A stretch of DNA of 64,000 bases, from the IMG/VR virus record IMGVR_UViG_3300020594_000001, positions 45,600 through 109,599 of that record; one strand, written 5' to 3'. The translations under genes were made by a program, and so were the position numbers. The DNA comes from a virus (Duplodnaviria; Heunggongvirae; Uroviricota; Caudoviricetes). Positions 39,338 through 63,506 of the stretch are shown here, one piece after another. The notes under the pieces were generated by a model, which ran no database searches, was not told the DNA's origin, and was given only the letters and a program-made list of their open reading frames with translations. Position 1 is the first letter of the stretch; each line of letters opens with the position of its first letter.

Positions 39338-39553
39338 TTACTCCATGAATGCGCTGACGCGCTCGTTTAAGCACTGAACGAGCAGCGCCATAAGAAAGTG
39401 CTGACGCGCAAGGCGCATCTGTTCTGGTATAGGAACGCTGTCAAACTCGTCACTCTCGACGAATGCATTCAAGCTGTGCAGCCGGCAGCTGGCTTCGCTA
39501 AGCTCAGCAACAACCCTCTGTTGATATGGGGCTAAGTCTTTGTATGACTTCAT
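39338..39553 (-). CDS. hypothetical protein, 71 aa
   Basis: Minus-strand ORF. Confidence 0.4.
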   Translation of the reverse strand: MKSYKDLAPYQQRVVAELSEASCRLHSLNAFVESDEFDSVPIPEQMRLARQHFLMALLVQCLNERVSAFME

Positions 39554-39572
39554 GTATTCCTCAGTAAGAAAC

Positions 39573-39613
39573 GGGGCGTCATACGCCCCTTTATAGTGAG
39601 TGCTTACTTACGT
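39573..39613 (-). promoter_or_regulatory. phage motif (AAGTAAGCACTCACTATAAAGG) followed by hairpin GGGGCGTATGACGCCCC
   Basis: It lies between the nrdA stop and the next gene. The motif-plus-hairpin arrangement recurs at 43098..43140. Confidence 0.5.
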
Positions 39614-39614
39614 T

Positions 39615-41900: not shown

Positions 41901-41977
41901 TTTGTTCCTTCTTAAACGTGGAGGTGTGTCGGTCGATTGTAAGTAAGCGCTCGCTTACACTTCAAACCAAAAGATTG

Positions 41978-43531: not shown

Positions 43532-45491
43532 CGAGCGCCCCTTCTGCGTATGAGCCGTCAGCTTCCTTTGTCATTGTGGCTACTGTATCTATCCAGTCGC
43601 GCAAATCGTGGTGCGATATGACCAGCACCGTGCCTTTTTCCCGCGCGCGACGCTCCAGCACCACCATCAATCGCTCCAACCCCGCCACGTCCAGGGCTTG
43701 GTCGATTTCGTCACCAATGAAGAGGTTGATGGGCTTAACCGCCCGCGAAGCCTGCAAGTCTTGCAGCGCCATCACAGTCGCCAGTCTGGTTCTACGCTTT
43801 TCACCGCCAGACAAGAGCCCGAATGTGCCCCCGCCATTGATATGGCTCACCGCGATGTTGAACTTCTCGCGAACCTCGCCCTTAGCAGTCTCGCCCAGCG
43901 TCGACCAGACTGCGTTGATCTCGCCGTCAGACATGATCGACAGGTAATCTTGCGTGCGCTCGTTCAGGAAGGGTGTCACCGTGTCAAGAATCTGGGCGCG
44001 CACCCCTGCAGGGCTAAAGACCTGCGCGACACATTTCGCCACCTCCAGCTTTGCTTCGAGCGCCCCGGTGGCGACGTCTGCCTTGCTAATGTTTTCCAGC
44101 GTCTTCGCAATTCGCTTTTCGAGCATTTCGAGCGCTGTGGTGCCAGGGTTTGCCTCGGTCATGAATGTCTCGGCCTGCGCGACCATACCCTTATATCGCG
44201 TCATATGCGAGCCAAGGGTCGCTTTCATGTCACCCGCTTGGCGAAGCAGCGCACTGATGCGCGAATACTCAGCGGACACCTCTGAGACGTCAGGAATCGC
44301 CCGCTGCGCCACCGCAACGCCCTCTTCAAGCGCAACCACCTCATTGGCGATCTGGGCGTGCTCCTCGCGTTTTACGCGCACCTGCTCAAGCTGCGCTTTC
44401 AATCGTGTGGTCGCGTGTGCCACGTATTCGCCAAGCTCTTCCTCGGTGTGGGGCTTGCCACACTCTGGGCAGGGCTTCTTCATTTCTTCAGGCGCATTCT
44501 TAACCTGCTCTTGTGTGCGCTTGGCTTGCTCAGCGTGCTGGCGAAGACTGTTAGTGACGTTCGATAGTCGTATCTGTGCGTTGTGCAGCGCTTTCTGAGC
44601 GTCCTGGTATGCTTGCTGCGCGGGCTTTGCGCCCTCCAGGGCCAGCGAGCATTCCTGCAGCTTGTCATTGAGCTCATCGACATTGATGGCTTTATATTGA
44701 GCGCCCAGGGTTGTGATTGTTATCTTGAGAGTTTCTGCCTCCCTTAATGCCTCTGCTTTGCGCGTCGCCCTTCCCTTTTCGAATTCGTCGACCTCTGCCT
44801 TAATCGACTCAAGCGATCGCTCGTCACTACGCAGGGAGGTCACATTGGCTTCCTTCGACGATTGAACGACGTCCATTTCCCGCTTGACGTCATTCAGTTC
44901 ATCGCGCGCCAACTCATACGCCTGTTCAAAGCGGTTTATGCCTGCCGCCTCTTCGATGATCGCCTTCAGAGCCTTGTCAGTCATGTTGGGCAGGTCAGGG
45001 GTAGCCTCCTGGCCCGCGTAAATTGCCGCCACGAAGACCTCGCGCGAGCACCCAAGAATTTCCTCGATGAGGCCCTGGGTATCTTTGTCTGTCGCCAGGG
45101 TGATGTCTGCCCAGCCATCAGCACCAAATTTCTCGACACGCACCGCGTTCTTGTGGACTTTGTGCTTGCGGTAGCGACTCACGCGGTAAAGTTGTCCGCC
45201 GTCATCCAGCTCGACAACCACCTCGCAGTTTTTCTTGGCTTTGTTGTTGATGACTGAGTCGCCCGTTTCACCCCGCGCGGTCGCGTTGAACAGACACCAG
45301 CTGAGCGCGTCGACGATGCTGGACTTGCCCGCGCCGTTCGGGCCTTCGATAAGCACAAGCCCGCGCTCGCACAGATTCAGGGGCGGACATTTCCCGCCAA
45401 TCGCGAGAAAGTTCTTTATTATCAGAGTATTAATGTTCATTCGAGCGGGCTTCCCCAGATTGTTTTTGCCACCATAGCCACCTGTCGACAT
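43524..45491 (-). CDS. sbcC: SbcC/Rad50-like recombination ATPase
   Basis: N-terminal Walker A GPNGAGKSS, a long coiled-coil middle, and a C-terminal Walker B/D-loop LFIGDEIDQALD. Confidence 0.75.
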   Translation of the reverse strand: MSTGGYGGKNNLGKPARMNINTLIIKNFLAIGGKCPPLNLCERGLVLIEGPNGAGKSSIVDALSWCLFNATARGETGDSVINNKAKKNCEVVVELDDGGQLYRVSRYRKHKVHKNAVRVEKFGADGWADITLATDKDTQGLIEEILGCSREVFVAAIYAGQEATPDLPNMTDKALKAIIEEAAGINRFEQAYELARDELNDVKREMDVVQSSKEANVTSLRSDERSLESIKAEVDEFEKGRATRKAEALREAETLKITITTLGAQYKAINVDELNDKLQECSLALEGAKPAQQAYQDAQKALHNAQIRLSNVTNSLRQHAEQAKRTQEQVKNAPEEMKKPCPECGKPHTEEELGEYVAHATTRLKAQLEQVRVKREEHAQIANEVVALEEGVAVAQRAIPDVSEVSAEYSRISALLRQAGDMKATLGSHMTRYKGMVAQAETFMTEANPGTTALEMLEKRIAKTLENISKADVATGALEAKLEVAKCVAQVFSPAGVRAQILDTVTPFLNERTQDYLSIMSDGEINAVWSTLGETAKGEVREKFNIAVSHINGGGTFGLLSGGEKRRTRLATVMALQDLQASRAVKPINLFIGDEIDQALDVAGLERLMVVLERRAREKGTVLVISHHDLRDWIDTVATMTKEADGSYAEGALVA

Positions 45492-45820
45492 GTCTCAACA
45501 TCGAACATACCTATGTGACAATCGGATTTTGGAATGTTCAGCTTCTGTGCCAGTAGCTCATATGCCCGGCTGCGGGTGAATGCGCCCGTCTTCCAGAGTG
45601 GGTCGAACGCAGCATGCGCCCGCATCTTTGCACTTCGCAGAGCCCCGTTTGCCAGTCGACCCAAGGGCTTATCAGTGCCTTTATGGCAACCGACATACGC
45701 ATCGCACGGCGCGCACAGATAGAAAAGTTGCTCGAACAAGTCTGGACGATGCGGGTATATCTTGCGCCCCGTCACAAGGCTGCTTGGCCCCCTGCAGTAT
45801 GAGCACTGAACAATTCTCAT
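45437..45820 (-). CDS. zinc-finger protein, 127 aa
   Basis: Start trimmed to MRIVQCSYC. Cys clusters CSYC ... CAPC. Confidence 0.4.
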   Translation of the reverse strand: MRIVQCSYCRGPSSLVTGRKIYPHRPDLFEQLFYLCAPCDAYVGCHKGTDKPLGRLANGALRSAKMRAHAAFDPLWKTGAFTRSRAYELLAQKLNIPKSDCHIGMFDVETCRQVAMVAKTIWGSPLE

Positions 45821-46026
45821 AGTTGGACCTTCATCAGCGCAATTGCGCCCGCCAGTGGGCAACAAACATGAAACAGCACGACGAGCATTTCTCTCGTGCT
45901 TCCCGGGGGTGCTTCCACCCACAATTGCAAGTCAAAGAAGGCGAATGCAAAAAGCGATAAGAGCGGAAGCGCGATGAACACCAAGGCGAAGCCGTTGATA
46001 ACTCCCTCTTTAAACGCATTGCTCAT
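45817..46026 (-). CDS. small membrane protein, 69 aa
   Basis: Hydrophobic segment GFALVFIALPLLSLFAFAFF. Confidence 0.35.
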   Translation of the reverse strand: MSNAFKEGVINGFALVFIALPLLSLFAFAFFDLQLWVEAPPGSTREMLVVLFHVCCPLAGAIALMKVQL

Positions 46027-47105
46027 AGCGATACCCCCGCGACTGAAAGAATTCGAGCGCACGCATCATTGACAGCCTTCTTGTCACTGAATGCCTGTGC
46101 CGCAATGTAGTGTTCTACGCTCTTGAAGATCGATGCTCCACCGCTGACGGATGCGCTGACCCCGCCCTCACGCGTCACCCTCGCTTTTGGCATTGATCGA
46201 ATCAGAACGCCCTTGGCTCCCCAGGAGATAAGTTCTGCACGAATTGCCTCGATTTCGCTATGGGCAGACTTTTCAGTCTTTACCCTCACGTAGTTGCCGT
46301 CGACCATCAGAGGGACGTCCTCTGACTCGAACTCAGCCAGCTGATCGAGGTCGAGAAACTCGGGAAGGTGCGATTTGAAGAACTTGACCGTATCGTCATG
46401 CACTAGCAGAAAGCCCGCCTTAGTGCCCACGTCGGACCAGGTGTGATGCGCCAGCGCACCAATCGAATAGACCTCGCCGGGGAATTGTTTGTAGTTGTGG
46501 TAATGACCTGACAGAATACGCTTGAAGCCGCGCTCTGCAAGCCAAGCGGGGTCAATTCCGGTGTCAGGCAAGCCCTGGATCACTCCGTTTACCGGAGCGT
46601 GAATGATCAGCGTATATTCGCCAACGTTTGGCCCCAGAAGCTCTGCGACACGAACAATTTCAGCGTGTAACGAAGACACCTTGTCATACCAGGGAATCAT
46701 CGCAACCTTGTCGTCGGTAAAGACTTCGGTCGCATTGACGATTTCGACCGCTTCAGTCTCCAATGCAGTCACCGCACTGGAAAGGCGCTCTGAGTCACGG
46801 CGCGCAAGGTCATGGTTGCCCGAGATAATTCGAAACTCGAAACCCCGCTCCGTCAATTCGGTAAGCGTGTCGAGCACCGGGTTGAGCACCAAAGGTGACA
46901 CCTGGCCGCGAGTGTGGAATACATCGCCACCACAGTAGATGCGGTTTCCCCCCGCCTTGCGAGTTTCTTCCGCGCAGCGCTTGAGCTCGCCAAGCAACCC
47001 ACGCAGGCGCAGACTCACCCCATCAGGGTCATCCTCACTGAAGCTACTCCAAGCGTGGAAGTGCGGGTCAGAGAACAGGCCAAATGGCTTTTTCATAGTA
47101 AGCAC
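46023..47105 (-). CDS. sbcD: SbcD/Mre11-like nuclease
   Basis: Calcineurin-like phosphoesterase motifs DPHF, GGDVFH and GNHD; adjacent to sbcC. Confidence 0.75.
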   Translation of the reverse strand: MLTMKKPFGLFSDPHFHAWSSFSEDDPDGVSLRLRGLLGELKRCAEETRKAGGNRIYCGGDVFHTRGQVSPLVLNPVLDTLTELTERGFEFRIISGNHDLARRDSERLSSAVTALETEAVEIVNATEVFTDDKVAMIPWYDKVSSLHAEIVRVAELLGPNVGEYTLIIHAPVNGVIQGLPDTGIDPAWLAERGFKRILSGHYHNYKQFPGEVYSIGALAHHTWSDVGTKAGFLLVHDDTVKFFKSHLPEFLDLDQLAEFESEDVPLMVDGNYVRVKTEKSAHSEIEAIRAELISWGAKGVLIRSMPKARVTREGGVSASVSGGASIFKSVEHYIAAQAFSDKKAVNDACARILSVAGVSL

Positions 47106-47115
47106 TTACTCCAAA

Positions 47116-48783: not shown

Positions 48784-49791
48784 CTACGGGGTTGCCAAAG
48801 CTTTCAATTCGCTTAACAGACCTTCACTTTCTATGTGCTTTATCAACGGCTTGCGGTGATACCTCTTGCCATCCGTCCATGTCAGGTAAGCGCCGCCCTG
48901 CTCGATCCGGCCAAGAGCGATCGCAGAATCCAATAGAGCACCCGTTACGTCGAAGTATGCAACCCCATCCTCTTCGAACATCATGTTCAGCTTGAACTCT
49001 TGAAACGGTCGAGTAAGCTTGTTCTTTACCGTCTTGATAGTGATGGTCTGGCCCACGAACTCTTTGCCTCCCTTAACCACCTCCATGATCTTGGAGCGCG
49101 TCAGCGACAGCCGGGTCGTTGCGTAGAACTCCATGCTAGAGCCCCCGGGCGTCGTAGTCGGGTCGCCATAGACCACACCGGGCTTCTGGCGAACTTGGTT
49201 CAGATACAGCACTGTGAAGTTGTATTGCTCAGCCAGCGCTGCCATCGACTTGAGCGTGGTCGAGGTGATCCGCGCCAGCGCGGTCGTGTCGTTCATGTTC
49301 AATTCGTCGAGGTCTTTACCGATAGTGCTTTCGGTATTGCACGAAGCAATAGAGTCCAAAACGAACAGAATGGGTGCGGTGGGCGGGATTGCCTTGCTGT
49401 TTCGAATAGCCTGTGCCGCCTTCGCAATGCCAGTATTGGACTTCTCCCAGGTCGTGGGCTGCTTGTAGATCCAGTAAGGAAATTCGTCTGACAACCCCAC
49501 GTTCTTTGCAAGGCGCAGATCGAACGTTTTTTCGTGATCGTGGAAGCCCGCGACACCGCCCGCTTTCTGAGCTTGTGCCATGATGTGCGTGGCGATTGCA
49601 GTTTTTCCCGCTGAGCTTGGGGCAAAGATTTCCATCAGCCTGCCTTGGGGGATTCCCCCCTCAGCTTTACCACTGATGATTTGGTTTAGCAAGGGGATGC
49701 CCATATCGATGTAATGGGTAACCCCCTGGTTCTCGTGGTTCTCACCTACCGCGCCAAGCAGGGCCTTGGCGAGGTCTTCGACTGCTGTCAT
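48784..49791 (-). CDS. RecA-superfamily ATPase (phage UvsX/RadA/Sak4-like recombinase)
   Basis: Walker A APSSAGKTA and Walker B ILFVLDS; 335 aa. Confidence 0.55.
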   Translation of the reverse strand: MTAVEDLAKALLGAVGENHENQGVTHYIDMGIPLLNQIISGKAEGGIPQGRLMEIFAPSSAGKTAIATHIMAQAQKAGGVAGFHDHEKTFDLRLAKNVGLSDEFPYWIYKQPTTWEKSNTGIAKAAQAIRNSKAIPPTAPILFVLDSIASCNTESTIGKDLDELNMNDTTALARITSTTLKSMAALAEQYNFTVLYLNQVRQKPGVVYGDPTTTPGGSSMEFYATTRLSLTRSKIMEVVKGGKEFVGQTITIKTVKNKLTRPFQEFKLNMMFEEDGVAYFDVTGALLDSAIALGRIEQGGAYLTWTDGKRYHRKPLIKHIESEGLLSELKALATP

Positions 49792-50063
49792 GCTTTATCC
49801 TTTTCAGGGGGTTGTTGGTGATTCAATGTCACCGCGTTCTTGGGCGAGTAGGTCATACTCTGCGTGTTGATGACGCACCCACTGAACTGAGGTTGCTCAC
49901 GAAGCGCGACCAGAATGTCGTGCAGCTTCATGTAGATCATCGTCACCGAAAAGCCAACTACGCCCGCCCCTGTAGTTATAGGATCAAGATCGGTCAGCTT
50001 CGCCACGATGACGTATGCCGCCATCATGAACACCACATAGTGATCGTCGAACAGTTTCTTCAT
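49788..50063 (-). CDS. small membrane protein, 91 aa
   Basis: Hydrophobic segments VVFMMAAYVIVA and GVVGFSVTMIYM. Confidence 0.4.
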   Translation of the reverse strand: MKKLFDDHYVVFMMAAYVIVAKLTDLDPITTGAGVVGFSVTMIYMKLHDILVALREQPQFSGCVINTQSMTYSPKNAVTLNHQQPPEKDKA

Positions 50064-50986
50064 TCTTTTCCTTCTAACCGTTTTTCAAGAGGCGCGAACC
50101 ACTCGTCGAAATCGCGTAATATGCTTTGAAAATTCAGCTTCTCGCACAACGCCCGGAAGTTGTGCTTGTTGAGCTCTGGCTTGAGCACTCTTACGTTGGC
50201 AGGAGGCGGTGCCTTGACGTCCTGCAGGCTCATCAGCTTCATGTTGCGCGCAAAGGTCGCCCTGCCCTCCGGTGACGCGAGATTCTTGTGCTTGACATAC
50301 TTCGGAACAAATATCCCTTCGTCAACCTGCCGAAAGAACTCGTCAACGGAGCCGAACTCAGCGAGAATTTCGGGTGCAGTCTTCTTACCTATCTTGGGCA
50401 CTCCATCGATGGAATCACTTTCATCGCCTATTAGCGCCTTGCCCTGGATGTAGGACATGCCATCTTTGTAGCCCGTCATTTCGAAGTAATTCAGGGGGGT
50501 GAATTTCTTGTCGTTGATGGGGTCGACCCACTGACAGTCCGGCCCAACCAGCTGCGACCAGTCAGTGTCTGACGACACGAGGCGCACCAGCGAACCACCA
50601 CTTGTGATGCGACGTGTAAAGTAACCCGCTAGGTCATCTGCTTCTTGGCAGGTCGCGTAAACTTGGTGAATGCCCATCCAGGTCAATGCCTTTCGCAGGT
50701 ATGGAATCTGCGCTTCGCGGGTTCGCTTGCGCTCTGCCGATTCGGGGTCGTCCAGCGCCTTCTTCTCCCTCCCCGATTTGTATTCAGGAAACAGGTCATA
50801 GCGCCACTGTGCACGCCCGTCCCATAACACCAGGGGCGACCATCCGGGATTACGAGTTACCAGCGCATGCACCTCTTTGGCAAAACCAAAGATCGCCTGA
50901 ACCTGGAAGTGCCCAGCGGTGAGTTTATTTGCGCTGTGATGAGCATAGACGCGGTTGCTTGCGTCTACGATGATCGTGTTCGTCAT
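50060..50986 (-). CDS. 5'-3' exonuclease / flap endonuclease (FEN-like)
   Basis: N-terminal PIN-like region with acidic residues, plus H3TH DGVPKIGKKTAPEIL. Confidence 0.65.
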   Translation of the reverse strand: MTNTIIVDASNRVYAHHSANKLTAGHFQVQAIFGFAKEVHALVTRNPGWSPLVLWDGRAQWRYDLFPEYKSGREKKALDDPESAERKRTREAQIPYLRKALTWMGIHQVYATCQEADDLAGYFTRRITSGGSLVRLVSSDTDWSQLVGPDCQWVDPINDKKFTPLNYFEMTGYKDGMSYIQGKALIGDESDSIDGVPKIGKKTAPEILAEFGSVDEFFRQVDEGIFVPKYVKHKNLASPEGRATFARNMKLMSLQDVKAPPPANVRVLKPELNKHNFRALCEKLNFQSILRDFDEWFAPLEKRLEGKE

Positions 50987-51932: not shown

Positions 51933-51978
51933 TCGAAAGTGAGTGCTTACGAAGTATAGTAAGCACTCACTACGATAC
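51933..51978. promoter_or_regulatory. double (inverted) copy of the phage motif: AGTGAGTGCTTAC-N8-GTAAGCACTCACT
   Basis: A 13-bp inverted repeat in the intergenic gap upstream of the SSB-like gene. Confidence 0.5.
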
Positions 51979-52766: not shown

Positions 52767-55700
52767 TCAGTTGGTTAGTTCTGCGATTTGGGCGCAGGTT
52801 TGTTGAAGCAGCTTGATCTTGCTCGCGTCGAAGTAGATGGTGCTCGGATTCATTCCAAAGACGATGCTGGCGTCCAAGGCGGGATCGAAGATTGTCTTGC
52901 CCACTAACTCTGTGGGGTTACCCTTGGTCGACGGGGCAAAGTAGCGAATGGCATTACCACCCATGGCGACAATGACGGCGGGCTTGAGAATTTCAATTTC
53001 CCGAGCCAGATACTTTGAGCAACCATTGATTTGCTCTGTCGAAAGCACCTTCTGCTCTTTTGGTTTTACTGACTTCACCAGGGAAGTGTAGTAACCGTCG
53101 TTAGGACTGAGACCCGCGTCTTTGAGCGCCGCGCGAACCGCGTCACCAACGTCGCCCGACAGCATTTTTCCGTCTTGCGCTTCCTTCCAGTTGGGGGAGT
53201 CGAACACCATCATGAAGCGTGGCTTCTTACCCATGCTGGGCGTGGGGTGCTGCCCGCCAGACAACGAGCAACCGTCGCAAACACGCATTTCTCCGATGAT
53301 TTCTGCAATCTTCAGCTGAGCGATACGGTCGGCATTGAGCCCACGGTCCGCCTTCACTGCGTCAACGGTGTATCCCGGCATGAGTTCCAGGCGGTCTTTC
53401 AGTCGGTCAGGGTGCAGCGCAGGCAAGCCGTCGCCAAGCGATGCAAAAGCGCCCACCTTGCGTAGCACCTCTTTGTGGCGCACGTTGATTTTGCCCGCGA
53501 CGGTGCTCTTGGCGACCTCTTCAAACTGATCGAACGACTCGAAGGGTTTACCCTGGGCAGCGCGCACCTCAAGAATCTTCGCAGCCACGTTTACGCTGAT
53601 ACCCTTGATGGCCTGGAATGGCGCATAGAGTGTGCGTTCACCATCGATTGTGATTGTGTCGGACGACTTATTGATATCCGGTGGCAGCACGTCGATCCCG
53701 TGCGTCTTGGCGTCCATCATGATGGGCGCAAGCTTGTCGTCATCGTCGACCACCGACATAGACGCCGCATAGAACTCAGCTGGGTAATAGACCTTGAGCC
53801 ACATCATCTGATAGGAAATCAAGGTGTATGCGAACGCGTGGGACTTATTAAAGCAATACGCGGCAAAGCCCTCGATGTCGTTCCAAAGTGCCTGCGCATC
53901 AAGCTCACTCATGCCACTGGCGACTGCGCCATCGATGAACTGTTGGCCCATCGTTGCCATCTTGTCCTTGTCTTTCTTACCGATCGCTTTACGAAGCCCG
54001 TCAGCTTCTGCGCCGGTAAACCCGCAAAGGTCGACCGCGATTCGGGATACCTGCTCTTGGTAGACCGTAACCCCGAATGTTTCGCGCAGCGCGGGTTCGA
54101 CCAGCGGACTGATGTAGCTGGGCAGTTTCTTGCCTTGCTTAACTGCGATGTATTGATCCATCAGCCCCGCGTCGATTGGACCCGGACGAAACAGTGCTGT
54201 CGCGGCGGCGATATCCTCGAACGTCAGAGGCTCTAACACCGCCAAATCTTTCAGCAGCTTGCGCATGCCCGAGCCAGAAAACTGAAACACGCCCACCGTA
54301 TCGCCTCGACCAAATGCTTCAAGCACCTTACGATCGTCCAGCGGCAGCGCCAGCAGGTTGATCGTCTTATGATGGCGCTCTTTGATATAGCGACGGGCAT
54401 GCGCAAGCACGTCGAGCGTAGACAGACCCAGAATGTCCATCTTGACGAGGCCGAAGTCTTCAACCACGCTTTTATCCCAGTTCACCACCGGCAGCGCACC
54501 CTCTTGACGCTGCATCACCACCGCGCGGGTGTTGATGTCATCGTGCGCGACAATGACGCCCGCTGCGTGCTGCCCCAGGTTACGCATGTTCCCTTCGAGC
54601 GTCGTCGCATGGTTCCATATGACGGGATGCTCAGCCTTGAACTTTGCAATATCTGGCACGCTCGCCGCAGACTCTTCGAGCGGAAGCGAAACCCCGTGCT
54701 CCTTCTCCATTTGCTTGGAACACGAATATTCGTAGGGCTTCAGACCATGCACACGGGAGACGTCCCGAAGTGACGAAGCGGAGCCCAGGGTCGAATAGTT
54801 CGAAATGCCCGCGACTTTGGCGCGACCAAACCTGCCCACGATATACTCGACGACTTCGCCTCGTCGTGAGCTCATGAAGTCCATGTCCACGTCAGGCAGG
54901 TCGATACGGTCGGGATTGATGAAGCGTTCGAACAGAAGGCCAAACCGAATCGGGTCTAAGTCTGTAATGCCAAGCAGGTATGACACCAATGAGCCCGCAG
55001 CTGAACCGCGACCAGGGCCAACGATGACGTCTTGCGCTTTTGACCAACCGACAATCTCTTGAACAAGCAAGAAGTAGTTCGAGAACCCGAGGCGTCGCAG
55101 CACGCCAAGCTCATACGCCAAGCGCTCCTTATACCTCTGCATATCTTCGGGCGCGGGCTTGTGGCCCAGCACTTCACTACCAAAGCGTTTTACCCAGCCT
55201 TCTTTGCAGCGCTCTAGCAACGTCTTGAATGCGTCTTCAGCCATATGGGGCAGCGACGCAGGCATCTTCTCGAAGCGATAGAAGCACTGCTCGACAATCT
55301 GATCCATGGACGCGAAACTTTGCTTAACTTCATCGCCATTCATTCCGATACGGCGGGCGGTCGAAATCATTCGCGTCGCGAGCTCTTTGGGGTCATCGAA
55401 GCACCAATCCCGGGTAGCTGGCACAGGCAGCTGGGGAGAGCCCATGGTGTATGTTCCAGAGCTTGTGATGGCCCTGAGAACATCATGGCTTGCAGCTTGG
55501 TCGCTTGATGCATAAAAGCGCGGGTAGCCCGCAATCAGCGGTAGCCCACGACTGCGGGCGCATGCCAGCGCTTTGCGGTTGAGCGTGTCGAACAACATGC
55601 TCTGAACCGGCGTAATCTCGATATAGAGCGGGTGTTTCTCCGACAGCGCTTGGACGATTTCGCCTGCCTTGGGGTGATGAAACAGGCAGAATAGGTCACC

Positions 55701-56135
55701 CGTTGTGACAATCACGTCTTCAAGCGCCAGCACCTGTGAAAGCTCGGTGCGGGCATGGTAGTAAAACTGGTCAGCGCTGTTTGCCTTAGACAGCAAGCCC
55801 ATCAGCGACCGCAAACCCGTCTCGGTCTTTACGTAAACCTTGATTTGAAAAGAGTGGTTTCGAACCTCAACCGCGCCCTCTTTCTTCTTTTGCTGAGCGG
55901 TGGGCGGGCGATAAGTTGCGCTGTCATATACACGAAGCGTGCACCCAAGAACAGGGGTAATGTCGTGCTTCTTGCAAGCAGACGAGAATGCGGGCAAGCC
56001 CGATATCGTCATGGTGTCTGTGAGCGCGATCGATTTGAAGCCCAACTCTTTGGCGCGCTCAACCATCGGCACCACCTGCAAGATTGACTCCCCGACAGAG
56101 TGATCAGACCGAACAGACAGTGCATGTTGTAACAC
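52767..56135 (-). CDS. dnaE: DNA polymerase III alpha subunit (DnaE-type)
   Basis: N-terminal PHP domain and the palm region GPGRGSAAGSLVSYLLGITDLDPIRFGLLFERFINPDR; 1122 aa. Confidence 0.85.
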   Translation of the reverse strand: MLQHALSVRSDHSVGESILQVVPMVERAKELGFKSIALTDTMTISGLPAFSSACKKHDITPVLGCTLRVYDSATYRPPTAQQKKKEGAVEVRNHSFQIKVYVKTETGLRSLMGLLSKANSADQFYYHARTELSQVLALEDVIVTTGDLFCLFHHPKAGEIVQALSEKHPLYIEITPVQSMLFDTLNRKALACARSRGLPLIAGYPRFYASSDQAASHDVLRAITSSGTYTMGSPQLPVPATRDWCFDDPKELATRMISTARRIGMNGDEVKQSFASMDQIVEQCFYRFEKMPASLPHMAEDAFKTLLERCKEGWVKRFGSEVLGHKPAPEDMQRYKERLAYELGVLRRLGFSNYFLLVQEIVGWSKAQDVIVGPGRGSAAGSLVSYLLGITDLDPIRFGLLFERFINPDRIDLPDVDMDFMSSRRGEVVEYIVGRFGRAKVAGISNYSTLGSASSLRDVSRVHGLKPYEYSCSKQMEKEHGVSLPLEESAASVPDIAKFKAEHPVIWNHATTLEGNMRNLGQHAAGVIVAHDDINTRAVVMQRQEGALPVVNWDKSVVEDFGLVKMDILGLSTLDVLAHARRYIKERHHKTINLLALPLDDRKVLEAFGRGDTVGVFQFSGSGMRKLLKDLAVLEPLTFEDIAAATALFRPGPIDAGLMDQYIAVKQGKKLPSYISPLVEPALRETFGVTVYQEQVSRIAVDLCGFTGAEADGLRKAIGKKDKDKMATMGQQFIDGAVASGMSELDAQALWNDIEGFAAYCFNKSHAFAYTLISYQMMWLKVYYPAEFYAASMSVVDDDDKLAPIMMDAKTHGIDVLPPDINKSSDTITIDGERTLYAPFQAIKGISVNVAAKILEVRAAQGKPFESFDQFEEVAKSTVAGKINVRHKEVLRKVGAFASLGDGLPALHPDRLKDRLELMPGYTVDAVKADRGLNADRIAQLKIAEIIGEMRVCDGCSLSGGQHPTPSMGKKPRFMMVFDSPNWKEAQDGKMLSGDVGDAVRAALKDAGLSPNDGYYTSLVKSVKPKEQKVLSTEQINGCSKYLAREIEILKPAVIVAMGGNAIRYFAPSTKGNPTELVGKTIFDPALDASIVFGMNPSTIYFDASKIKLLQQTCAQIAELTN

Positions 56136-56145: not shown

Positions 56146-56772
56146 TTATGATTCGTTGTGGTAATACAGCTTTGTAGTATTGCTATCGATGCGAGGATTG
56201 AGCGTCATCAAGCCCGCAGCGTCTTCGACGCCTATCCCAAGCTCTTTGAAAACGCGCCAGATCAATGACGCCTGGACCGACGCTGAGCTCGATGCCCAGC
56301 CTAGGGCAGATTGGAGCGCTGCCTTCGCTTGTGCCTTGGAAACAGGAACACGGTTGGACAGCAGCAGATACATCGTGCTGGCGGTGCGTTGGCTGTCATT
56401 TGGGAATGGGTTCTCGCCATTGGCAAGCGCCTGGGCAATGAAAGTCTCTTTCCTGAACATTGCCCGCATCATCTTGCCCACCGCTGCAGGAACGCTGTCG
56501 ATCAGCGCTTTCTGTGTGGGCGTCGGTGCCCAGCGCGCGCGGGTCGCCCGCTCGACTTTCACCTCAAGAGGTCTGGGCTGCGCAACGCGTTCGACCGGGT
56601 CATTAACCGCGACCATTGTGCTGAAGGTCAGAATGAGCTCTGGATCGCCAATCCTCGATAGGACGGTGCGAGACACCGACACACACGCATTTGCGCTGGC
56701 GCATGTGTTGCATTTGGGCGACCGCACGCTAAACACGCTGGGAATGCCAAAGCACCCCGGTTGCCTAAGCAT
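56146..56772 (-). CDS. hypothetical protein with N-terminal Cys cluster; candidate anti-sigma partner
   Basis: Cys cluster CFG...KCNTCASANAC. It overlaps the sigma factor stop by 8 nt, suggesting translational coupling. Confidence 0.3.
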   Translation of the reverse strand: MLRQPGCFGIPSVFSVRSPKCNTCASANACVSVSRTVLSRIGDPELILTFSTMVAVNDPVERVAQPRPLEVKVERATRARWAPTPTQKALIDSVPAAVGKMMRAMFRKETFIAQALANGENPFPNDSQRTASTMYLLLSNRVPVSKAQAKAALQSALGWASSSASVQASLIWRVFKELGIGVEDAAGLMTLNPRIDSNTTKLYYHNES

Positions 56773-57448
56773 GAATCTTCACCCCCAACACGGTGTCGAA
56801 CTCCTGCGCGATGCCGCGCATTTGCTCGCGGGAATAGCCTAGGTAACGCCCGATAAGACGAACCGACAGCTTTTCGCTCGGATTGCGACGCTTAGCGCCA
56901 CCCGCAATGTGCTTGTGAATGGCAGCGAGATATTCTTCGTGCGCGTCCATAACCGCCTGGGTCGGGGCCATGATTTCACGAATGATGCGCCGGGCCTCTG
57001 CCGATAGGCACCTAATTCGCTCTGAAATTTCGACGCTACGCACTGCCAACTGCTCGACGCTCAGCGTGGTGTCGGCCAGGTATTGCTCGGGGGAAAACTC
57101 GTCTTCGTCGTCCTCCCCAGACATTTCGCTAAAAAGCATCACCCCATGCAGGGCTCGCTCTTCGATGCGCTTGTTGACATAGCGGTTCACGTTGTTAAGC
57201 ACCGCCCGCCCCATGTAAGCGCTGAATGTGATGCCCAGGCCAGGCTTATAGGTGCGCAGTGCCTCAGCGTAAGAAAGACACGCCTCTTGGAACAAGTCTT
57301 CGTATTGAATGTTGGTCTTTGTCGCAAGAACCCGCGTGTGGATGGTCCTGGCGAGCTTGTGGATTAAGCCTTTCTGGGCTTCGAAGCTGGTGTCAAAACC
57401 ACGCCCCACCCCGGGGCGTGATCCTGATTGTTGAAGTTGAGTGCTCAT
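56765..57448 (-). CDS. sigma-70 family RNA polymerase sigma factor (regions 2 and 4)
   Basis: Region 2-like EDLFQEACLSYAEALRTYKPGLGITFSAYMGRAVLNNV and a C-terminal HTH LSVRLIGRYLGYSREQMRGIAQ. Confidence 0.5.
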   Translation of the reverse strand: MSTQLQQSGSRPGVGRGFDTSFEAQKGLIHKLARTIHTRVLATKTNIQYEDLFQEACLSYAEALRTYKPGLGITFSAYMGRAVLNNVNRYVNKRIEERALHGVMLFSEMSGEDDEDEFSPEQYLADTTLSVEQLAVRSVEISERIRCLSAEARRIIREIMAPTQAVMDAHEEYLAAIHKHIAGGAKRRNPSEKLSVRLIGRYLGYSREQMRGIAQEFDTVLGVKIHA

Positions 57449-57465: not shown

Positions 57466-58629
57466 TTAGCCAAAAATGCGCGCAGCGACAGCGTCGACAG
57501 CTTCCTTATCCACGCGGGACAGTTTGTTGGCAAAGCAGACCGCGAGTCCTGCGCGGTAGCTACCCTTCATGAGACCGATACGCGATGCTGCGATCAGCGT
57601 GCGCGGGCTAATCGGGGCGCTGATCTTTGCGCCTTCGAACTGCTCGCGAACCCGGTTAGCGAAATCGACCATCTTCTTGGCGTCCGCCAGGGCGATGCCG
57701 CCCTGCTTGACCAGAATCTGCTCTTCGCGATCGGGGGCCATATACTTCATTTCCAGCACCATATGGAAACGGTCGTAGTTGGCGGCGTTCTGGATATTGG
57801 TGCCCTGATACAGCCCGGTTTCGTCGCCCGAGCCGTTGGTGTTGCCGGTCGCCACGAAGCGAAAGTTCGGGTGTGGGCGAATGATCCGGTTGGCAGCGTC
57901 CGCCTCTTTGATGACCAGGGGCTTTCCCTCAAGCACGGGCTGATACACTGCCAGCACCGATGGCAACGCGAAATCGTATTCGTCTGCCAGATACACCCAG
58001 CCGTTTTTCATGGCTACCGCCAAGGGGCCAAGCTCGAAGATTGTTTCGCCAGCGCGAGCGGTCCATTGGCCGACGATATGGGATTCTTCGGTGTTCAAGG
58101 TATGCTGAACACGAATCAGCGGTCGCTGGGTGCGGGCCGCGACTTGCTCGACCGCTGCAGTCTTGCCTACGCCCGCGTGGCCCCACGAATAGAGGGGGAT
58201 GCCAATTTCGAACGCCATCAGCATGTTGCGCAGCGTTTCGTTGTCGAACACGTAGTTCTTGTCGATGTCCGGTATCATTTCTGCGTCGTCGCCTCGATCG
58301 AAGACGGTGACAGGAATGGGCTCGCCGCGCTTGTTCAGAGCAGTCTTGTCGTCGCCCAGGTCAAACAGCACATGCATGGGCTGGCGGGTTACACCGCCCA
58401 CACTGGTCGTCATTTCCGTAACGGTGCTGGCCGCGCCCTCTTCCTTTGTCGCCCCGTCTTTAAGCGCTTGGCGACGTGCAATCTCTTCTTGCGCCTCACT
58501 GCTGAGCAATTCAGCGCCCGGGTAGGTGTCTTTGTATTCCTGCAGTGAGACCTCGGGATGCTCCTTCCTCAAGTGCGCCGAAATGACGTGGACCTTGGCA
58601 CCACAGATTTTGCAATCGATTTGAGACAT
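57466..58629 (-). CDS. MoxR/CobS-like AAA+ ATPase with N-terminal zinc ribbon
   Basis: Walker A GHAGVGKTAA and Walker B WVYLADE; N-terminal CKICG...H..H. Confidence 0.6.
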   Translation of the reverse strand: MSQIDCKICGAKVHVISAHLRKEHPEVSLQEYKDTYPGAELLSSEAQEEIARRQALKDGATKEEGAASTVTEMTTSVGGVTRQPMHVLFDLGDDKTALNKRGEPIPVTVFDRGDDAEMIPDIDKNYVFDNETLRNMLMAFEIGIPLYSWGHAGVGKTAAVEQVAARTQRPLIRVQHTLNTEESHIVGQWTARAGETIFELGPLAVAMKNGWVYLADEYDFALPSVLAVYQPVLEGKPLVIKEADAANRIIRPHPNFRFVATGNTNGSGDETGLYQGTNIQNAANYDRFHMVLEMKYMAPDREEQILVKQGGIALADAKKMVDFANRVREQFEGAKISAPISPRTLIAASRIGLMKGSYRAGLAVCFANKLSRVDKEAVDAVAARIFG

Positions 58630-58754
58630 GTTTGCTCCGTAAAAATAGCGTGAGCGCTCACTTACAATCTTTCTTATAGTAAACGCTTACTTCAAGACGT
58701 GGATATTATGCAGCAAAACCGAATTTGGAGATAGTGCTTACTCCAAATATTGGG

Positions 58755-60683
58755 CTAATTTTTCACAAGCAGCTTTTTGATTTCCCGTATCACTGTCCCG
58801 GGGAGGTCACTAACGTTATTTAACGTCACGCACTTCGGATAGTATTTCTTGGGGTCGCTGGTCTGAATGCCGATGCCCAAGACCTCGATTCCACCCTTCT
58901 CTGCATCCTTGACGGCACCCTTGAGGTGGGCGTGTAAAAGACCACTGTCATGGGCGCATGCGGGCTTGCCATCAGAAAGAACCATCAGTATCTTTCGTTT
59001 CTCGCGGCGCTGCGATAAGCGGGTTGCCGCAATCTGCACGCACTCGCCATCGACGTTATTGCGCAACAGTCCGTGCTGGTAAGAACGGTTGCCCAGATAA
59101 GCCAGCCGGTTCTTCACTGTTGGCGTCACACGCTCGGCAAAACCCTTAATAATGGGCATATTCAACGCTTCATACCGCGCATACGTAACGCCCAAGCGTC
59201 GGGCTTCCGAATGGGCTTCAGCACTAAAATCCCGCCCCGTGCTGAAGCCCAACACCTCAGTCGAGATTCTTATTCGTTCCAGCACAGAAGCCAGCGCATA
59301 AGCGGTTTCCGAAGCAACTCGAATGCGGTTGTTAGACGTCATCGAGCCAGAGCAATCGATCAACAGCGTCACCGCGACATCGTTTGCGGTGTGTTCATGC
59401 TTGCGTCGAAACGCTCGCTCATCGTTGAACGAGGTCAGGCGCGCCAGAGCGGTGGCGTTGATGCGCCCTGAGCGATGGCCTGCAGTCCAGATTGACTTGC
59501 TCATAGAGGCAATGGCGCGCTCCAGGTCTTTTTGCAGCGGACCCACCATATGGTCAACCCGATCCTGCATGTCTTTGACGCTCGCCTCGTGGAACTCGCC
59601 CGCATCAAGCGGCTCGATTTTGTCGTGATCGGTCGTCCACACTAGATACTTCGCATCACGCGCAGCGCGCGCGCTGACATTGCTCAGCACTTCGTCCAGC
59701 TTCTTATCAAAGCCTGAAAGCTCTGATGAGTCGGACAGTTTTTTCTTTGGCTTCTCTGACGGTTTTTCATCTTCGCCCGGCTTCTCGTCACCTTCAGAGC
59801 CTTCGTCGTCGTCGTCAGTGCTTTCGTCGCTTTCGTCAGAATCGTCGCTTTCGTCGCTTTCGTCAGAATCGTCAGAGTTGTCTTCCCCGTCCGTTGACTC
59901 CGCTTCTTCAGATTCCAAGTCTTCAGATTCCAAGTCTTCAGATTCCGGGGCCTCCTTTTCGCGCTCTTTCTCGCCACCCTTGGCAGATTTTTTCTTAGAC
60001 TTGTTGCCCTTGGCCGTCTTCTTGCTCTCGCTGGGCGAATCGCCATCAGCGTCGCCCTCTTCAGAGTCTTGATCGAGAAGCTTTGCTGCGTGCTTGGCTA
60101 CCCGTAAAGCATCGGCGCTGGAAGCGATCTTTGGAAGCTCGCGGGTCAAGTATTCGCCTACCTTGGACATCGGCTCTTCTACAATCGACCACTTGTCCTC
60201 CATGTAGTCTTTATAGATGGCCTGCCCCGCCAGCGCACGCACAGCAGGGACCATCACCGCCCCCACGACATCTTCGCCGCCTTCTGCAATTTTCTTGTCT
60301 GTATAGTTTTGCAGAAAGAAGCGACCGACGCTGGAAAGGTGATTTCCACTACCAGGGAATACCTCAGCCATCCTCCGCTCTACGAAGGTGTCTTCGATCA
60401 GGTTGTGTAAACCAGCAACACCCTGCTTACTGGCTTGATCAATAACGCTTACGTCTGAAAAGAGCGCGTGACCGACCTCATGGTCTAAGAACCCTTCGAT
60501 GGCATCCAAGAATTCTTGCGACGCGTCATCAGGGATATAGGGAATATTGATAAGCTCAATTTCCCCCGACCTTGTGTATTTTGTATATGCTTTACTACCT
60601 TGCTGCGTTACCTTTATTTTTTTCCGCGCCAGCATAGCCACTACCGCACTGACTTTTTCACGCACCAAGATAGATTTTTTCAT
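58755..60683 (-). CDS. CobT-like vWA-domain protein with long acidic Ser/Asp/Glu repeat linker
   Basis: C-terminal vWA MIDAS VTLLIDCSGSM, and a DSDESDESDDSDESDES / LESEDLESEDLESEE low-complexity region. Confidence 0.55.
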   Translation of the reverse strand: MKKSILVREKVSAVVAMLARKKIKVTQQGSKAYTKYTRSGEIELINIPYIPDDASQEFLDAIEGFLDHEVGHALFSDVSVIDQASKQGVAGLHNLIEDTFVERRMAEVFPGSGNHLSSVGRFFLQNYTDKKIAEGGEDVVGAVMVPAVRALAGQAIYKDYMEDKWSIVEEPMSKVGEYLTRELPKIASSADALRVAKHAAKLLDQDSEEGDADGDSPSESKKTAKGNKSKKKSAKGGEKEREKEAPESEDLESEDLESEEAESTDGEDNSDDSDESDESDDSDESDESTDDDDEGSEGDEKPGEDEKPSEKPKKKLSDSSELSGFDKKLDEVLSNVSARAARDAKYLVWTTDHDKIEPLDAGEFHEASVKDMQDRVDHMVGPLQKDLERAIASMSKSIWTAGHRSGRINATALARLTSFNDERAFRRKHEHTANDVAVTLLIDCSGSMTSNNRIRVASETAYALASVLERIRISTEVLGFSTGRDFSAEAHSEARRLGVTYARYEALNMPIIKGFAERVTPTVKNRLAYLGNRSYQHGLLRNNVDGECVQIAATRLSQRREKRKILMVLSDGKPACAHDSGLLHAHLKGAVKDAEKGGIEVLGIGIQTSDPKKYYPKCVTLNNVSDLPGTVIREIKKLLVKN

Positions 60684-60935: not shown

Positions 60936-61003
60936 AGGTTAAAGGGACTGCTGAAAGTGTAGTAAGACAAAATTAACAATTCTTTGGCAAATATGTTGGA
61001 CAA

Positions 61004-61046
61004 TTTATAGTTAGCGCTTGCTTTATCAAGTAAGCACTAACTATAC
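61004..61046. promoter_or_regulatory. divergent pair of the phage motif (TATAGTTAGCGCTTGC / GTAAGCACTAACTATA)
   Basis: It sits between the divergently transcribed genes 60720..60935 (-) and 61091..61420 (+). Confidence 0.5.
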
Positions 61047-61090
61047 TTCTACTACGTCATTCGACATGACTTTTTTATGGGAAGCCACCC

Positions 61091-61420
61091 ATGGCTTCCA
61101 GGGGAGCGCTTATGGCAAGTAAGAAAGGGGCTAACGTCCCGACCGCCGCTGACATCCTCAGCGAGGCGATAAAAAACTCGGGCGATAAGCTCAGCAGTGT
61201 GGGCCAAGCAATGGGCTTCAAAAGCCACTCTGCCATCTGGCAATATTGCAAGGGCACAACCGGCATACCGATATCAACAGCTATCAAACTTGGGCTCGCA
61301 GCCGGTATGACGCATGAGCAAGCCCAGGAATTCTTTCTCATCAACATGCGGGAACGTGACCCAGAATTATATGCAGCTGTAACAACTGTAATAAATTCTG
61401 CCATCGCGGCGCGGGGCTGA
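61091..61420 (+). CDS. helix-turn-helix transcriptional regulator (Cro/CI-like)
   Basis: LSSVGQAMGFKSHSAIWQYCKG resembles an XRE-type HTH. It is plus-strand, next to the int/xis module. Confidence 0.5.
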   Translation: MASRGALMASKKGANVPTAADILSEAIKNSGDKLSSVGQAMGFKSHSAIWQYCKGTTGIPISTAIKLGLAAGMTHEQAQEFFLINMRERDPELYAAVTTVINSAIAARG

Positions 61421-61425
61421 TTATA

Positions 61426-62073
61426 GTGCCAGTGGAGCCGCACATGAACATAAATCAGCTTCCAGGCAAGTGGCGTTGCACACTTTTACAACAATCTCCG
61501 ATCTGGGGCAGGCCGGTCGACAGCATTTCCCACCTCGATTTGCGCATTTTTCTGCGCCAACACTGGGGCACGCAGTCGTATAACCACGCTCTTGCCGAGG
61601 TGGGAGACCTTATCAGCGTGGTTTGGGACGCTATGCTTGCGGGCGCTATAGAGGGTGCCCCGAAGATCATTTATTTCGAGCCGCCCTCGCCCAGGTTGAC
61701 CGTCGACGAACTTATCGCATGGCTGAGCAATGCATCGATTGAGCGGCGTAGGGCAATTTTGTTCGCCCTGGAAGCAAAGCGCTCGATTAAAGAAACGGTG
61801 GAGCTTTGTCACGATGACCTGCGTTCAATGAAATTAAGCCCGTTGGCAAGTGACATAGTGCGCTCGATGGTTAGGAACCTGCATCTGGACTACGTCTTTT
61901 GGGAACGCTCGGCGCTTACGGGCAAGCCAATGCCTCTGATCGGGCTGGCAGATTCAGTCACCGACGTAAGCCAGGGGATCGGGTTTGATGCCCTACGACG
62001 CCTTTACGACGATCTTCTGGTTGTGGATCGGCATGCAGACCTTCGTAGCTTCGCCACGCTCGTATATCACTAA
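61426..62073 (+). CDS. hypothetical protein, 215 aa
   Basis: Plus-strand ORF 6 nt after the regulator. Confidence 0.4.
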   Translation: MPVEPHMNINQLPGKWRCTLLQQSPIWGRPVDSISHLDLRIFLRQHWGTQSYNHALAEVGDLISVVWDAMLAGAIEGAPKIIYFEPPSPRLTVDELIAWLSNASIERRRAILFALEAKRSIKETVELCHDDLRSMKLSPLASDIVRSMVRNLHLDYVFWERSALTGKPMPLIGLADSVTDVSQGIGFDALRRLYDDLLVVDRHADLRSFATLVYH

Positions 62074-62098
62074 AAGTAAGCACTTACTATAAATTGGG
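62073..62098 (+). promoter_or_regulatory. phage motif AAGTAAGCACTTACTATAAATTGGG in plus orientation upstream of the excisionase gene
   Basis: Intergenic, 21 bp before the ATG at 62119. Confidence 0.45.
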
Positions 62099-62118
62099 AT
62101 GTCCTGATTGGAGTCCCA

Positions 62119-62412
62119 ATGAGCCCTACCGAAATTGTTCTGAAGCAGTTCCCCAATCGTGTTTCTTTGTCTGTGGCAGAAGCGGGCGCGGCCCTGGGCT
62201 ACGCTCGCCAAACCACCTACAACCTGAAAGCGAAAGGGAAATTTCCCGTCAGGATCAGCTTCGCGGGCAAGACTCCGATCGTCCATCTGCACGACCTCAT
62301 CAGCTTCCTAGAGGGCTTTCCCGCTTCGAACGATTCCAACTTCACCCCAGCACCCAAGAAGAAAGGGCGTCCCTCGAAAGCGGACGCCCTTCGCAAAGCA
62401 GGGGTGATCTAA
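62119..62412 (+). CDS. AlpA/Xis-family excisionase or DNA-binding protein
   Basis: LSVAEAGAALGYARQTTYNLKAKGKFP is a MerR-like winged HTH of the AlpA type. It overlaps the int stop. Confidence 0.6.
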   Translation: MSPTEIVLKQFPNRVSLSVAEAGAALGYARQTTYNLKAKGKFPVRISFAGKTPIVHLHDLISFLEGFPASNDSNFTPAPKKKGRPSKADALRKAGVI

Positions 62413-63506
62413 GCGACTTTCGTTGCTTCGCTGCGGTTGGCGGCGACTCGCTCCGCCATCTTCTGAGCCAAGAATTTGGCGTTCAAATGAGTGTATCGCC
62501 TCAGCTGACGGTAGTCACGGTGCCCAGTAACTGCCGCTGCCTCCACTAAGCTCATACCCAAGTCTTCGAAAAGTCTGCTCGTCGCTTCATGGCGCGCGTC
62601 ATGCAGACGCAAATCTTTGAATAGTTGTGGGTCGGGGGCGATGCCCTGCTCCAGACACTCTTTCTCATAGATTTCTCGGGCACGCTTTCGCGCACGACCA
62701 AATGCCTGGGTAAGCGAGTCAGCTGCCACACCAAAAACCCTTCCTTCCTTGCGATCCCCGATAACTTCGCGTAGCACTTCTGCAACACCGGGCAGGATCG
62801 GAATCGTTCGATCATCGCCATTCTTGGTGTCGGGCAAAAACACTGTCGCGTCTCGTAGGTTAACGTGCGGGATTTCCATTTCAGCAGCTTCACCTCGGCG
62901 CATCGCGCTATTAACCGCCACATAGAGAAACGCTTTGAGCGCTGGTGAATTGCTTGCCTCGACGATCTTTGTATATTCATAGTCCGCCTCGTTCATTTCA
63001 CAAACGAAACGCCTGGTTCGCCCCTTTGGGGCGGCGGGGCGTTTAAGACCTTCTATGGGATTCTTGAGGCCCTTGAAGTCGTTGCATTCCGATATGGCGA
63101 AGTTATAGAACGACGAAATCATCCCTAACTCGCGAATGACTGTCCCTTTGGACACCGTCAGCAGTCGAGTGTTTCGGTATTCGCGAAAATCGGACAATCC
63201 ACAATCGAGCAACTCTTTGCGCGCCAAGGGCAATCTCTTCAGCCGCAAGATGAAGTTGAGCTCCTGCTTTGCACCCTTTTTGGACGGCACGGCCTTCTCC
63301 TGGCAATAGTCCAAAAGGTCGTAGAGCCGCTTTCCCTTAAGGTGCCGCATGTCGACAAAGGTCTTTTCCTTAATCGCCTTCTCAGTCTGTTCCGCCCATT
63401 CTTCTGCTTCGCGGCGGGTGGGGAAGGTTTCTGATAACGACGGGGTGCCCTTAACCCGCACCTTTGCCCTGAACTGGTATGGGCCACGCTCTTCAATGAC
63501 AGCCAT
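62409..63506 (-). CDS. int: tyrosine-type phage integrase
   Basis: C-terminal catalytic motifs LHDARHEA and TGHRDYRQLRRYTHL (R..H..R..Y); adjacent to a tRNA. Confidence 0.85.
   Translation of the reverse strand: MAVIEERGPYQFRAKVRVKGTPSLSETFPTRREAEEWAEQTEKAIKEKTFVDMRHLKGKRLYDLLDYCQEKAVPSKKGAKQELNFILRLKRLPLARKELLDCGLSDFREYRNTRLLTVSKGTVIRELGMISSFYNFAISECNDFKGLKNPIEGLKRPAAPKGRTRRFVCEMNEADYEYTKIVEASNSPALKAFLYVAVNSAMRRGEAAEMEIPHVNLRDATVFLPDTKNGDDRTIPILPGVAEVLREVIGDRKEGRVFGVAADSLTQAFGRARKRAREIYEKECLEQGIAPDPQLFKDLRLHDARHEATSRLFEDLGMSLVEAAAVTGHRDYRQLRRYTHLNAKFLAQKMAERVAANRSEATKVA

Follow-up and report, generated by a model that had tools for sequence, protein, structure and literature searches.

In this study we have examined a pair of overlapping genes in a 64,000-nucleotide stretch of a tailed-phage genome (positions 45,600 to 109,599 of IMG/VR record IMGVR_UViG_3300020594_000001; this whole stretch is referred to as the window). 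Both genes lie on the minus strand: open reading frame (ORF) A, at 56765-57448, encodes a protein of 227 aa, and ORF B, at 56146-56772, encodes a protein of 208 aa with a cysteine-rich N-terminus, hereafter B. An earlier note on this DNA had proposed that they form a sigma/anti-sigma pair. ORF A is a genuine but divergent sigma-70-family factor, with the two-domain layout of the extracytoplasmic function (ECF) type, and it is a new, distant member of a phage sigma family that is already annotated. B does not look like an anti-sigma factor. Since the sigma has never been seen without B, and since a natural fusion of the two proteins exists, a functional link between them is supported. We tentatively favour B as a cofactor associated with the sigma, rather than an anti-sigma that sequesters it.

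A divergent sigma factor with an atypical C-terminal domain

The assignment of ORF A is carried by region 2. The Pfam model Sigma70_r2 (PF04542) matches residues 26-93 of the 227-aa protein (57170-57373, minus strand) with 31.3 bits, above the gathering cut-off of 24 (E 1.7e-7), and it is matched by all members of the sigma family that we assembled (40/40). The protein contains the region-2-like segment EDLFQEACLSYAEALRTYKPGLGITFSAYMGRAVLNNVNRYV, its DLFQE...FSAY stretch corresponds to DLIQE...FSTY of sigma70 (the core-binding and -10 region), and residues D51, E55, F75 and N88 are invariant or nearly so across the family. The ORF also matches sigma families of the PHROG collection, and a profile built from the 40 members retrieved SigA, RpoS and RpoD chains from the PDB (best E 1.7e-8, for SigA), in an alignment that treats region 3 of the targets as inserted sequence and extends to a 4.1-like LSPRxR motif. 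The AlphaFold2 model (mean pLDDT, the predicted local distance difference test, 81.8) agrees with this assignment: the 50 PDB matches listed by Foldseek are all sigma factors (probability 0.84-1.00, 209-267 aligned columns). Regions 1.1 and 3 are missing from the 227-aa protein, and the model shows only an acidic linker between its two domains. The claim of a phage-encoded sigma factor is therefore borne out for region 2 and for the overall fold.

The C-terminal half is a divergent helical domain (residues 131-221, 56786-57058, minus strand), modelled with helices at 131-146, 150-160, 164-183, 196-202 and 207-221. Inspection by eye finds there a 4.1-like helix, LSAEARRIIREIM, an insertion of about 30 aa and a helix-turn-helix (HTH)-like segment, LSVRLIGRYLGYSREQMRGIAQEF, in agreement with the modelled helices. 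The region-4 models of Pfam (PF04545 and PF08281) match none of the 40 family members, the C-terminal half alone matched no sigma factor in the PDB, and an hhalign comparison of the sigma with Escherichia coli RpoE aligns region 2 only. The NCBIfam model sigma70-ECF (TIGR02937) does align weakly over residues 19-213 (38.2 bits, below its cut-off of 42.9). The region-4-like HTH that had been read in this domain is thus plausible from the modelled topology, this weak alignment and the 4.1-like LSxxAR motif, but it goes undetected by sequence profiles. ORF A is a sigma-70-family protein with an atypical C-terminal domain, which would allow a partner to provide, or to alter, upstream promoter contacts.

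The gene call of the Joint Genome Institute (JGI) for the sigma (P0170) is 214 aa long, which by length places its start about 13 codons past the ATG used here, near 57409. The 227-aa form is favoured because a 60% identical homologue of 226 aa (P0202) aligns across 100% of it.

Sigma and B within a replication-gene block

The two genes belong to a block of replication genes read on the minus strand in the order CobT-CobS-sigma-B-DnaE. The first is a CobT-like protein with a von Willebrand factor A (VWA) domain (58755-60683; CobT_C, E 6.3e-40). It is followed by a CobS-like MoxR AAA+ ATPase, the upstream neighbour of the sigma (57466-58629; AAA_5 and CbbQ_C, with phrog_249 at E 3.7e-97). Directly downstream of B lies DNA polymerase III alpha (DnaE; 52767-56135), recognised from the PHP, DNA_pol3_alpha, HHH_6 and UDG domains of the called gene and from synteny. 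The start of B overlaps the stop of the sigma by 8 nt (ATGCTTAG, 56765-56772), exactly as the earlier note described, and a Shine-Dalgarno-like sequence, GGGGGTGA (56779-56786), is found 6 nt 5' of the B ATG. In homologous pairs the two genes overlap by 4 nt or are separated by a gap of 1-7 nt.

Homologues were collected through synteny, profile searches and exhaustive phmmer runs; a tblastn search with the window sigma or B against 50,697 phage records gave nothing at E 1e-5, and a word-indexed homologue search returned B itself only. The order CobT-CobS-sigma-B-DnaE is kept in every sigma-bearing locus that was fetched, about 25 distinct loci of phages and phage-plasmids. With the sigma as seed, B was directly downstream in 10 of 10 loci; with B as seed, both genes were present in 16 of 18. 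Among all fetched loci the sigma never occurs without B directly downstream, and this includes divergent metagenomic contigs in which Pfam misses the sigma. The block is present in Rhizobium phages B1VFA and RHEph10, whose sigma is already annotated, and in Stenotrophomonas phage BUCTxx99. In RHEph10 (gp045, gp046) and B1VFA (B1VFA_132, B1VFA_133) the sigma is followed by a "hypothetical protein", and these genes belong to the same two families in the same block, with 20-35% identity to the window proteins over sigma region 2 and 21-26% for B. Several records of about 115-120 kb from Rhizobium, Sinorhizobium, Ensifer and Agrobacterium also carry the pair, in keeping with phage-plasmids. The sigma family is hence carried by siphophages of about 110 kb and by phage-plasmids related to RHEph10 and B1VFA, with SSU5 as a more distant relative.

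The co-occurrence is asymmetric. Whole-genome scans show that Pseudomonas phage phiK7B1 (Nickievirus) carries a full-length B between cobS and dnaE and no sigma of this family. SSU5 and 11 related phage records from Salmonella, E. coli and Klebsiella carry a 67-aa form of B, reduced to the four-cysteine (Cys4) part with identical spacing, and again no sigma, the genome of SSU5 having likewise been scanned in full. In SSU5 this mini-B overlaps the start of dnaE, to which it is translationally coupled. Its apparent placement under "DNA polymerase III alpha" annotations suggested a Cys4::DnaE fusion, but the mini-B is a small ORF of its own, left without annotation, which overlaps the start of dnaE.

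A natural fusion of sigma and B

In one lineage the two proteins form a single chain. P0107 (395 aa) opens with a sigma (Pfam region 2 at residues 7-74), which a short linker joins to an entire B; the latter has PGCYG...C-x13-C-x2-C-x5-C, ENPF and the winged helix. The identical protein was recovered from three samples (SRR5420293, SRR5420290 and ERZ27312619), each time between cobS and dnaE (L027:6001-7188, L028:886-2073 and L029:3025-4212). A random frameshift artefact is unlikely because the same protein is found in three samples with the usual synteny. This fusion is the sole evidence for a functional link between sigma and B beyond inherited gene order. The fusion contig is phage-plasmid-like and carries RepC, and a 130-aa ORF with no assigned function lies between the fusion gene and dnaE. 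Another candidate relative, P0165 (1359 aa, seven matched stretches), was discarded as spurious: it is a TIR/NB-ARC/TPR repeat protein.

The companion protein B

B begins with MLRQPGCFGIPSVFSVRSPKCNTCASANAC, that is, C7-x13-C21-x2-C24-x5-C30. This cluster, which had been noticed before, is confirmed by the alignment of 48 homologues, where G6, C7, G9, C21, C24, C30, G119, N121 and F123 are all invariant. As the spacing is moreover identical in SSU5, phiK7B1 and BUCTxx99, the pattern is not a matter of chance. The corresponding Cys4 metal-binding knuckle, PGCFG-x11-C-x2-C-x5-C, covers residues 6-30 (56683-56757, minus strand), and a GxNPF motif with a C-terminal winged-helix domain covers residues 119-191 (56200-56418, minus strand). 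In the AlphaFold2 model (pLDDT 81.9) the N-terminal knuckle is followed by helices up to residue 64, by a basic linker of low confidence and by a confidently modelled C-terminal domain with a winged-helix fold; the median pI is 9.9 for the linker and 9.2 for the winged-helix domain. Exhaustive phmmer searches gave at least 119 B clusters at 50% identity, nearly all of 140-240 aa, and this two-part architecture is common to them.

B matches phrog_3616, a family of unassigned function (E 1.3e-19, residues 61-187). There is no credible match to its sequence in Pfam and none in NCBIfam or the PDB; in profile searches of the PDB, the eS27 zinc ribbon (E 0.12), FlgM (E 0.29) and WhiB (E 0.54) all fall short of significance. 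As far as can be judged from the sequence, the cysteine pattern is compatible with either a ribbon-like Zn(Cys)4 knuckle or a [4Fe-4S] site. The arrangement C-x2-C-x5-C is a frequent [4Fe-4S] signature, common in DNA-processing enzymes.

Some further observations touch on B. One homologue (P0043, L025:6001-6579) has been named "adenine-specific DNA glycosylase" by JGI and has no glycosylase domain; the name is presumably spurious and driven by the resemblance of C-x2-C-x5-C to the Fe-S loop of MutY/EndoIII. DnaE, encoded immediately downstream of the Cys4 protein, bears in all related loci a C-terminal domain resembling uracil-DNA glycosylases (UDGs; PF03167), and family-4 UDGs are Fe-S proteins. 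A paralogous family of 280 aa (SSU5_087, L044:23356-24198; phiK7B1_098, L020:23976-24818; 32% identical to each other) has only the C-terminal winged-helix module in common with B (hhalign probability 66%, E 5.8e-5). Both genes lie just downstream of a gene for a DnaQ-like 3'-5' exonuclease, and the B-type winged helix therefore appears as a reusable phage module found near polymerase subunits.

None of the testable features that define the known anti-sigma classes was found in B. The zinc motif H-x3-C-x2-C is absent (the position four residues before C21 is R17, which is variable in the family), a Pfam scan of the 48 members matched no anti-sigma family, and no anti-sigma domain (ASD) or zinc-binding anti-sigma (ZAS) domain was recognised by profile or by fold. 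As for the WhiB class, the C-Xn-C-X2-C-X5-C pattern of WhiB-like (Wbl) proteins is present with n = 13. The Pfam Whib model (PF02467) matches 1 of the 48 members, at E 0.2, hhalign of the N-terminal domain against WhiB1 gives 5.9% probability, and no G[VI]WGG turn occurs in the B sequence. Because every testable feature of the anti-sigma classes failed, and because B also exists in phages that lack a sigma of this family, it is no classical anti-sigma factor, and the anti-sigma half of the proposed pair does not hold.

Two motif classes and the surrounding genes

The earlier note had further suggested that the pair might time a switch between two classes of dispersed motif, and we find no support for this. 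The class CAAGGTAAACATCATGCA is a conserved Shine-Dalgarno and start-codon context at six gene starts (111-128, 845-862, 2902-2919, 9311-9328, 13186-13203 and 16674-16691, minus strand; 6 matches against 0.05 expected). The sites occupy the left 17 kb of small ORFs, and an upstream CATAAC-ACA-CA leader is partly conserved. As a ribosome-binding context this class reads CAAGGTAAACATCATG.

The other class, AGTAAGCACTTACTATAA, is a 14-bp palindrome, AGTRAG-YR-CTYACT, with 14 matches of its 18-mer in the window against 0.02 expected and about 16 sites in a relaxed search. Examples are found at 13469-13482, 27312-27325, 32947-32960, 39595-39608, 41942-41955, 47097-47110, 51938-51971, 58649-58742, 61009-61042 and 62075-62088. 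The interval 58649-58742 (minus strand) lies in the CobT/CobS spacer and holds three copies upstream of CobS-sigma-B-DnaE; no sigma-70-like promoter passed the scan in this spacer. The palindrome stands upstream of many operons, often with a -10-like TATAAG, TATACT or TACAAT on the gene-proximal side, in a distribution reminiscent of the dispersed or late operators of phage P1. The same palindrome is found in B1VFA, in the loci L014 and L016 and in other relatives, and the fusion lineage (L027) has the form AAGTCA-N4-TGACTT. SSU5, with no sigma of this family, has eight sites, including AAGTAATCACTTACTATA in the cobT/cobS spacer, as well as sites in the structural/late-gene region; the palindrome is thus a regulatory site of the whole group rather than one specific for this sigma. 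A reading of this class as a T7-type promoter (ACTCACTATA) was rejected, the motif being palindromic and also present in SSU5; none of the ten largest ORFs of the window was recognised as a single-subunit RNA polymerase.

One divergent pair of palindromes overlaps sigma-70-like promoters (60984-61046) in a lysogeny-like module (60984-63506). Beside it lie an HTH-like ORF of 109 aa (61091-61420, plus strand), an excisionase-like HTH_17 protein (62119-62412, plus strand) and a tyrosine integrase (62409-63506, minus strand). Other genes of the window, within the minus-strand intervals 28168-29367, 31964-32821, 38076-41900, 43524-47105 and 48784-50986, encode an RtcB RNA ligase, an SPFH/Band-7 protein, a class Ia ribonucleotide reductase (NrdA/NrdB), an SbcC/SbcD-like pair, RecA and a 5'-3' exonuclease. 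In the middle of the CobT-like gene (59820-59882) a 9-nt tandem repeat (GCTTTCGTC / AGAATCGTC) encodes an acidic run, SDESDESDD... The closest sequenced phages are only about 45% identical in CobS, and the window thus comes from a remote member of the SSU5/RHEph10 supergroup that has not been described before.

Discussion

In the model that we favour, the sigma would be expressed from the replication-gene block CobT-CobS-sigma-B-DnaE and would presumably bind the host core RNA polymerase through region 2, redirecting it to phage promoters. B most likely joins the sigma on one transcription complex, where it would act as a DNA-contacting or a metal- or redox-responsive cofactor and would not sequester its partner. 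The permanent 1:1 tether in P0107 suits a cofactor, or a regulatory domain acting in cis, better than a sequestering inhibitor that has to be released. The domain identities, the conserved gene order, the one-sided co-occurrence and the fusion are established by the analysis; that B physically binds the sigma, whether it then activates or inhibits, which metal it carries and which promoters are targeted are the elements of this model that we infer.

Several observations weigh against a role of B as a cofactor of the phage sigma. The existence of B without the sigma, at full length in phiK7B1 and as the Cys4-only form in SSU5-like phages, implies that its core function cannot depend on a phage sigma, unless a host sigma is used there. 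All loci come from related phages, and their conserved adjacency is thus in large part phylogenetic inertia. A mirror-tree analysis of 22 phages and the five block proteins shows no co-evolution signal specific to sigma and B: all five proteins correlate (r 0.87-0.95), with a partial r of 0.44 for sigma-B and 0.58 for sigma-CobT. In the same set the two are the fastest-evolving members of the block, with mean pairwise p-distances of 0.69 for the sigma and 0.63 for B, compared with 0.43-0.44 for DnaE and CobS. The fusion comes from one lineage, and the SRA run numbers of two of its three samples are neighbouring ones, possibly from a single study. Finally, B is always directly upstream of dnaE, with which a replication role is equally consistent. 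B could then be a protein of the replication module, either a metal protein associated with DnaE or CobS/CobT or an accessory that binds an origin or other DNA. Its position beside the sigma would be incidental, an ancestor having acquired the sigma gene in a single insertion between cobS and B. We consider this account possible but doubtful. Besides the position of B before dnaE, which holds whether the sigma is present or not, and the overlap in SSU5, it is favoured by the paralogous winged-helix protein (SSU5_087 / phiK7B1_098) adjoining a DnaQ-like exonuclease, by the C-x2-C-x5-C signature, together with the glycosylase name given to one homologue, and by the MoxR/VWA nature of the CobS/CobT neighbours, pairs of this type being typically metal-cofactor or assembly chaperones. 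Unrelated functions would, however, make the fusion hard to account for, the loci checked show no joining of the Cys4 domain to DnaE, and B has no similarity to known replication proteins.

A true sigma/anti-sigma pair, in which B would be a soluble cysteine-based sensor of redox state or metal that blocks the sigma until it receives a signal, much as RsrA does with SigR, seems unlikely to us, given the missing class features and the phages that have B alone, although the ORFs overlap and are co-transcribed, the Cys4 cluster is invariant, the sigma is not found without B, and inhibition in cis would still be compatible with a fusion (some ECF sigmas are known to carry fused regulatory extensions). 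It is very improbable that B is instead the sequence-specific regulator of the dispersed palindrome AGTAAG-YR-CTTACT, which stands upstream of many operons, its own included. The basic winged helix, the three palindromes upstream of cobS-sigma-B-dnaE and the altered half-site (AAGTCA) of the fusion lineage would fit such a role. SSU5, however, retains its eight sites with a B that has no winged helix. In the loci of RHEph10 and BUCTxx99, which do encode B, an exact-half-site scan found no such palindrome, and the HTH gene at 61091-61420, beside a divergent site pair, is a more conventional candidate.

A more far-reaching reading would make B an analogue, in phages of Proteobacteria, of the WhiB-type factors, with its Cys4 module, possibly an Fe-S one, docking on the C-terminal domain of a sigma: the phage's own where there is one, and a host sigma in SSU5-like and Nickie-like phages. 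The winged helix would then serve as a second DNA-reading head, and the fusion lineage would have a single-chain sigma. We regard this as quite unlikely; if true, phage gene expression would be coupled to metal, redox or replication status. Wbl proteins are [4Fe-4S] proteins that bind sigma region 4, and B resembles them in the C-Xn-C-X2-C-X5-C spacing (often C-x2-C-P), in the succession of a small cysteine domain and a basic, DNA-contacting part, and in the association with a sigma. It shows no homology to them, however, and no G[VI]WGG, has 13 residues where Wbl proteins have about 22-31, and occurs in phages of Proteobacteria, not Actinobacteria.

The pair shares traits with other known systems as well. 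ZAS factors such as RsrA and ChrR have a Cys-rich N-terminus and are co-transcribed with their sigma, as is B; B differs from them in the absence of H-x3-C-x2-C and of any anti-sigma profile match, in its winged-helix C-terminus and in its occurrence without a sigma. Among phage sigmas, gp36 of phiEco32 is an ECF-like factor that redirects the host RNA polymerase. Like gp36-type sigmas, the window protein is a small two-domain phage member of the sigma-70 family with a conserved region 2, but its C-terminal domain is unrecognisable as region 4 by sequence, it is encoded in a replication operon and it is always paired with the Cys4/winged-helix protein. ECF41/42 sigmas and the Cys-rich CorE sigmas have regulatory extensions fused to their C-terminus, and in P0107, too, a two-domain sigma is extended C-terminally by a cysteine-containing domain; here, however, sigma and B are separate genes in most lineages, the window included, and the extension is unrelated in sequence. 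Late transcription in T4, with the gp55 sigma, the gp33 co-activator and the gp45 clamp, offers a mechanistic analogy, with no homology implied, in that a divergent phage sigma whose region 4 is atypical or absent works with a small partner and is tied genetically to replication.

Phage sigmas being well known and the relatives of this one already annotated, there is nothing unusual in the sigma as such. What is new is its obligate companion B, an unnamed, fast-evolving family that falls into no anti-sigma class and, in one lineage, forms a single polypeptide with the sigma; our literature search turned up no work on the pair or on the partner family, and no reported function for the partner. 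All together, a sigma with a Cys4/winged-helix partner, the fusion included, is a new version of the theme of a sigma with an accessory protein. As the Rhizobium phages RHEph10 and B1VFA are culturable, the relation between sigma and B can be tested directly. If B is indeed a sigma-bound cofactor or sensor, it would represent a new type of sigma accessory protein and would provide a handle on the timing of gene expression in the widespread SSU5/RHEph10-type phage-plasmids, some of which are reported to carry antibiotic-resistance genes.

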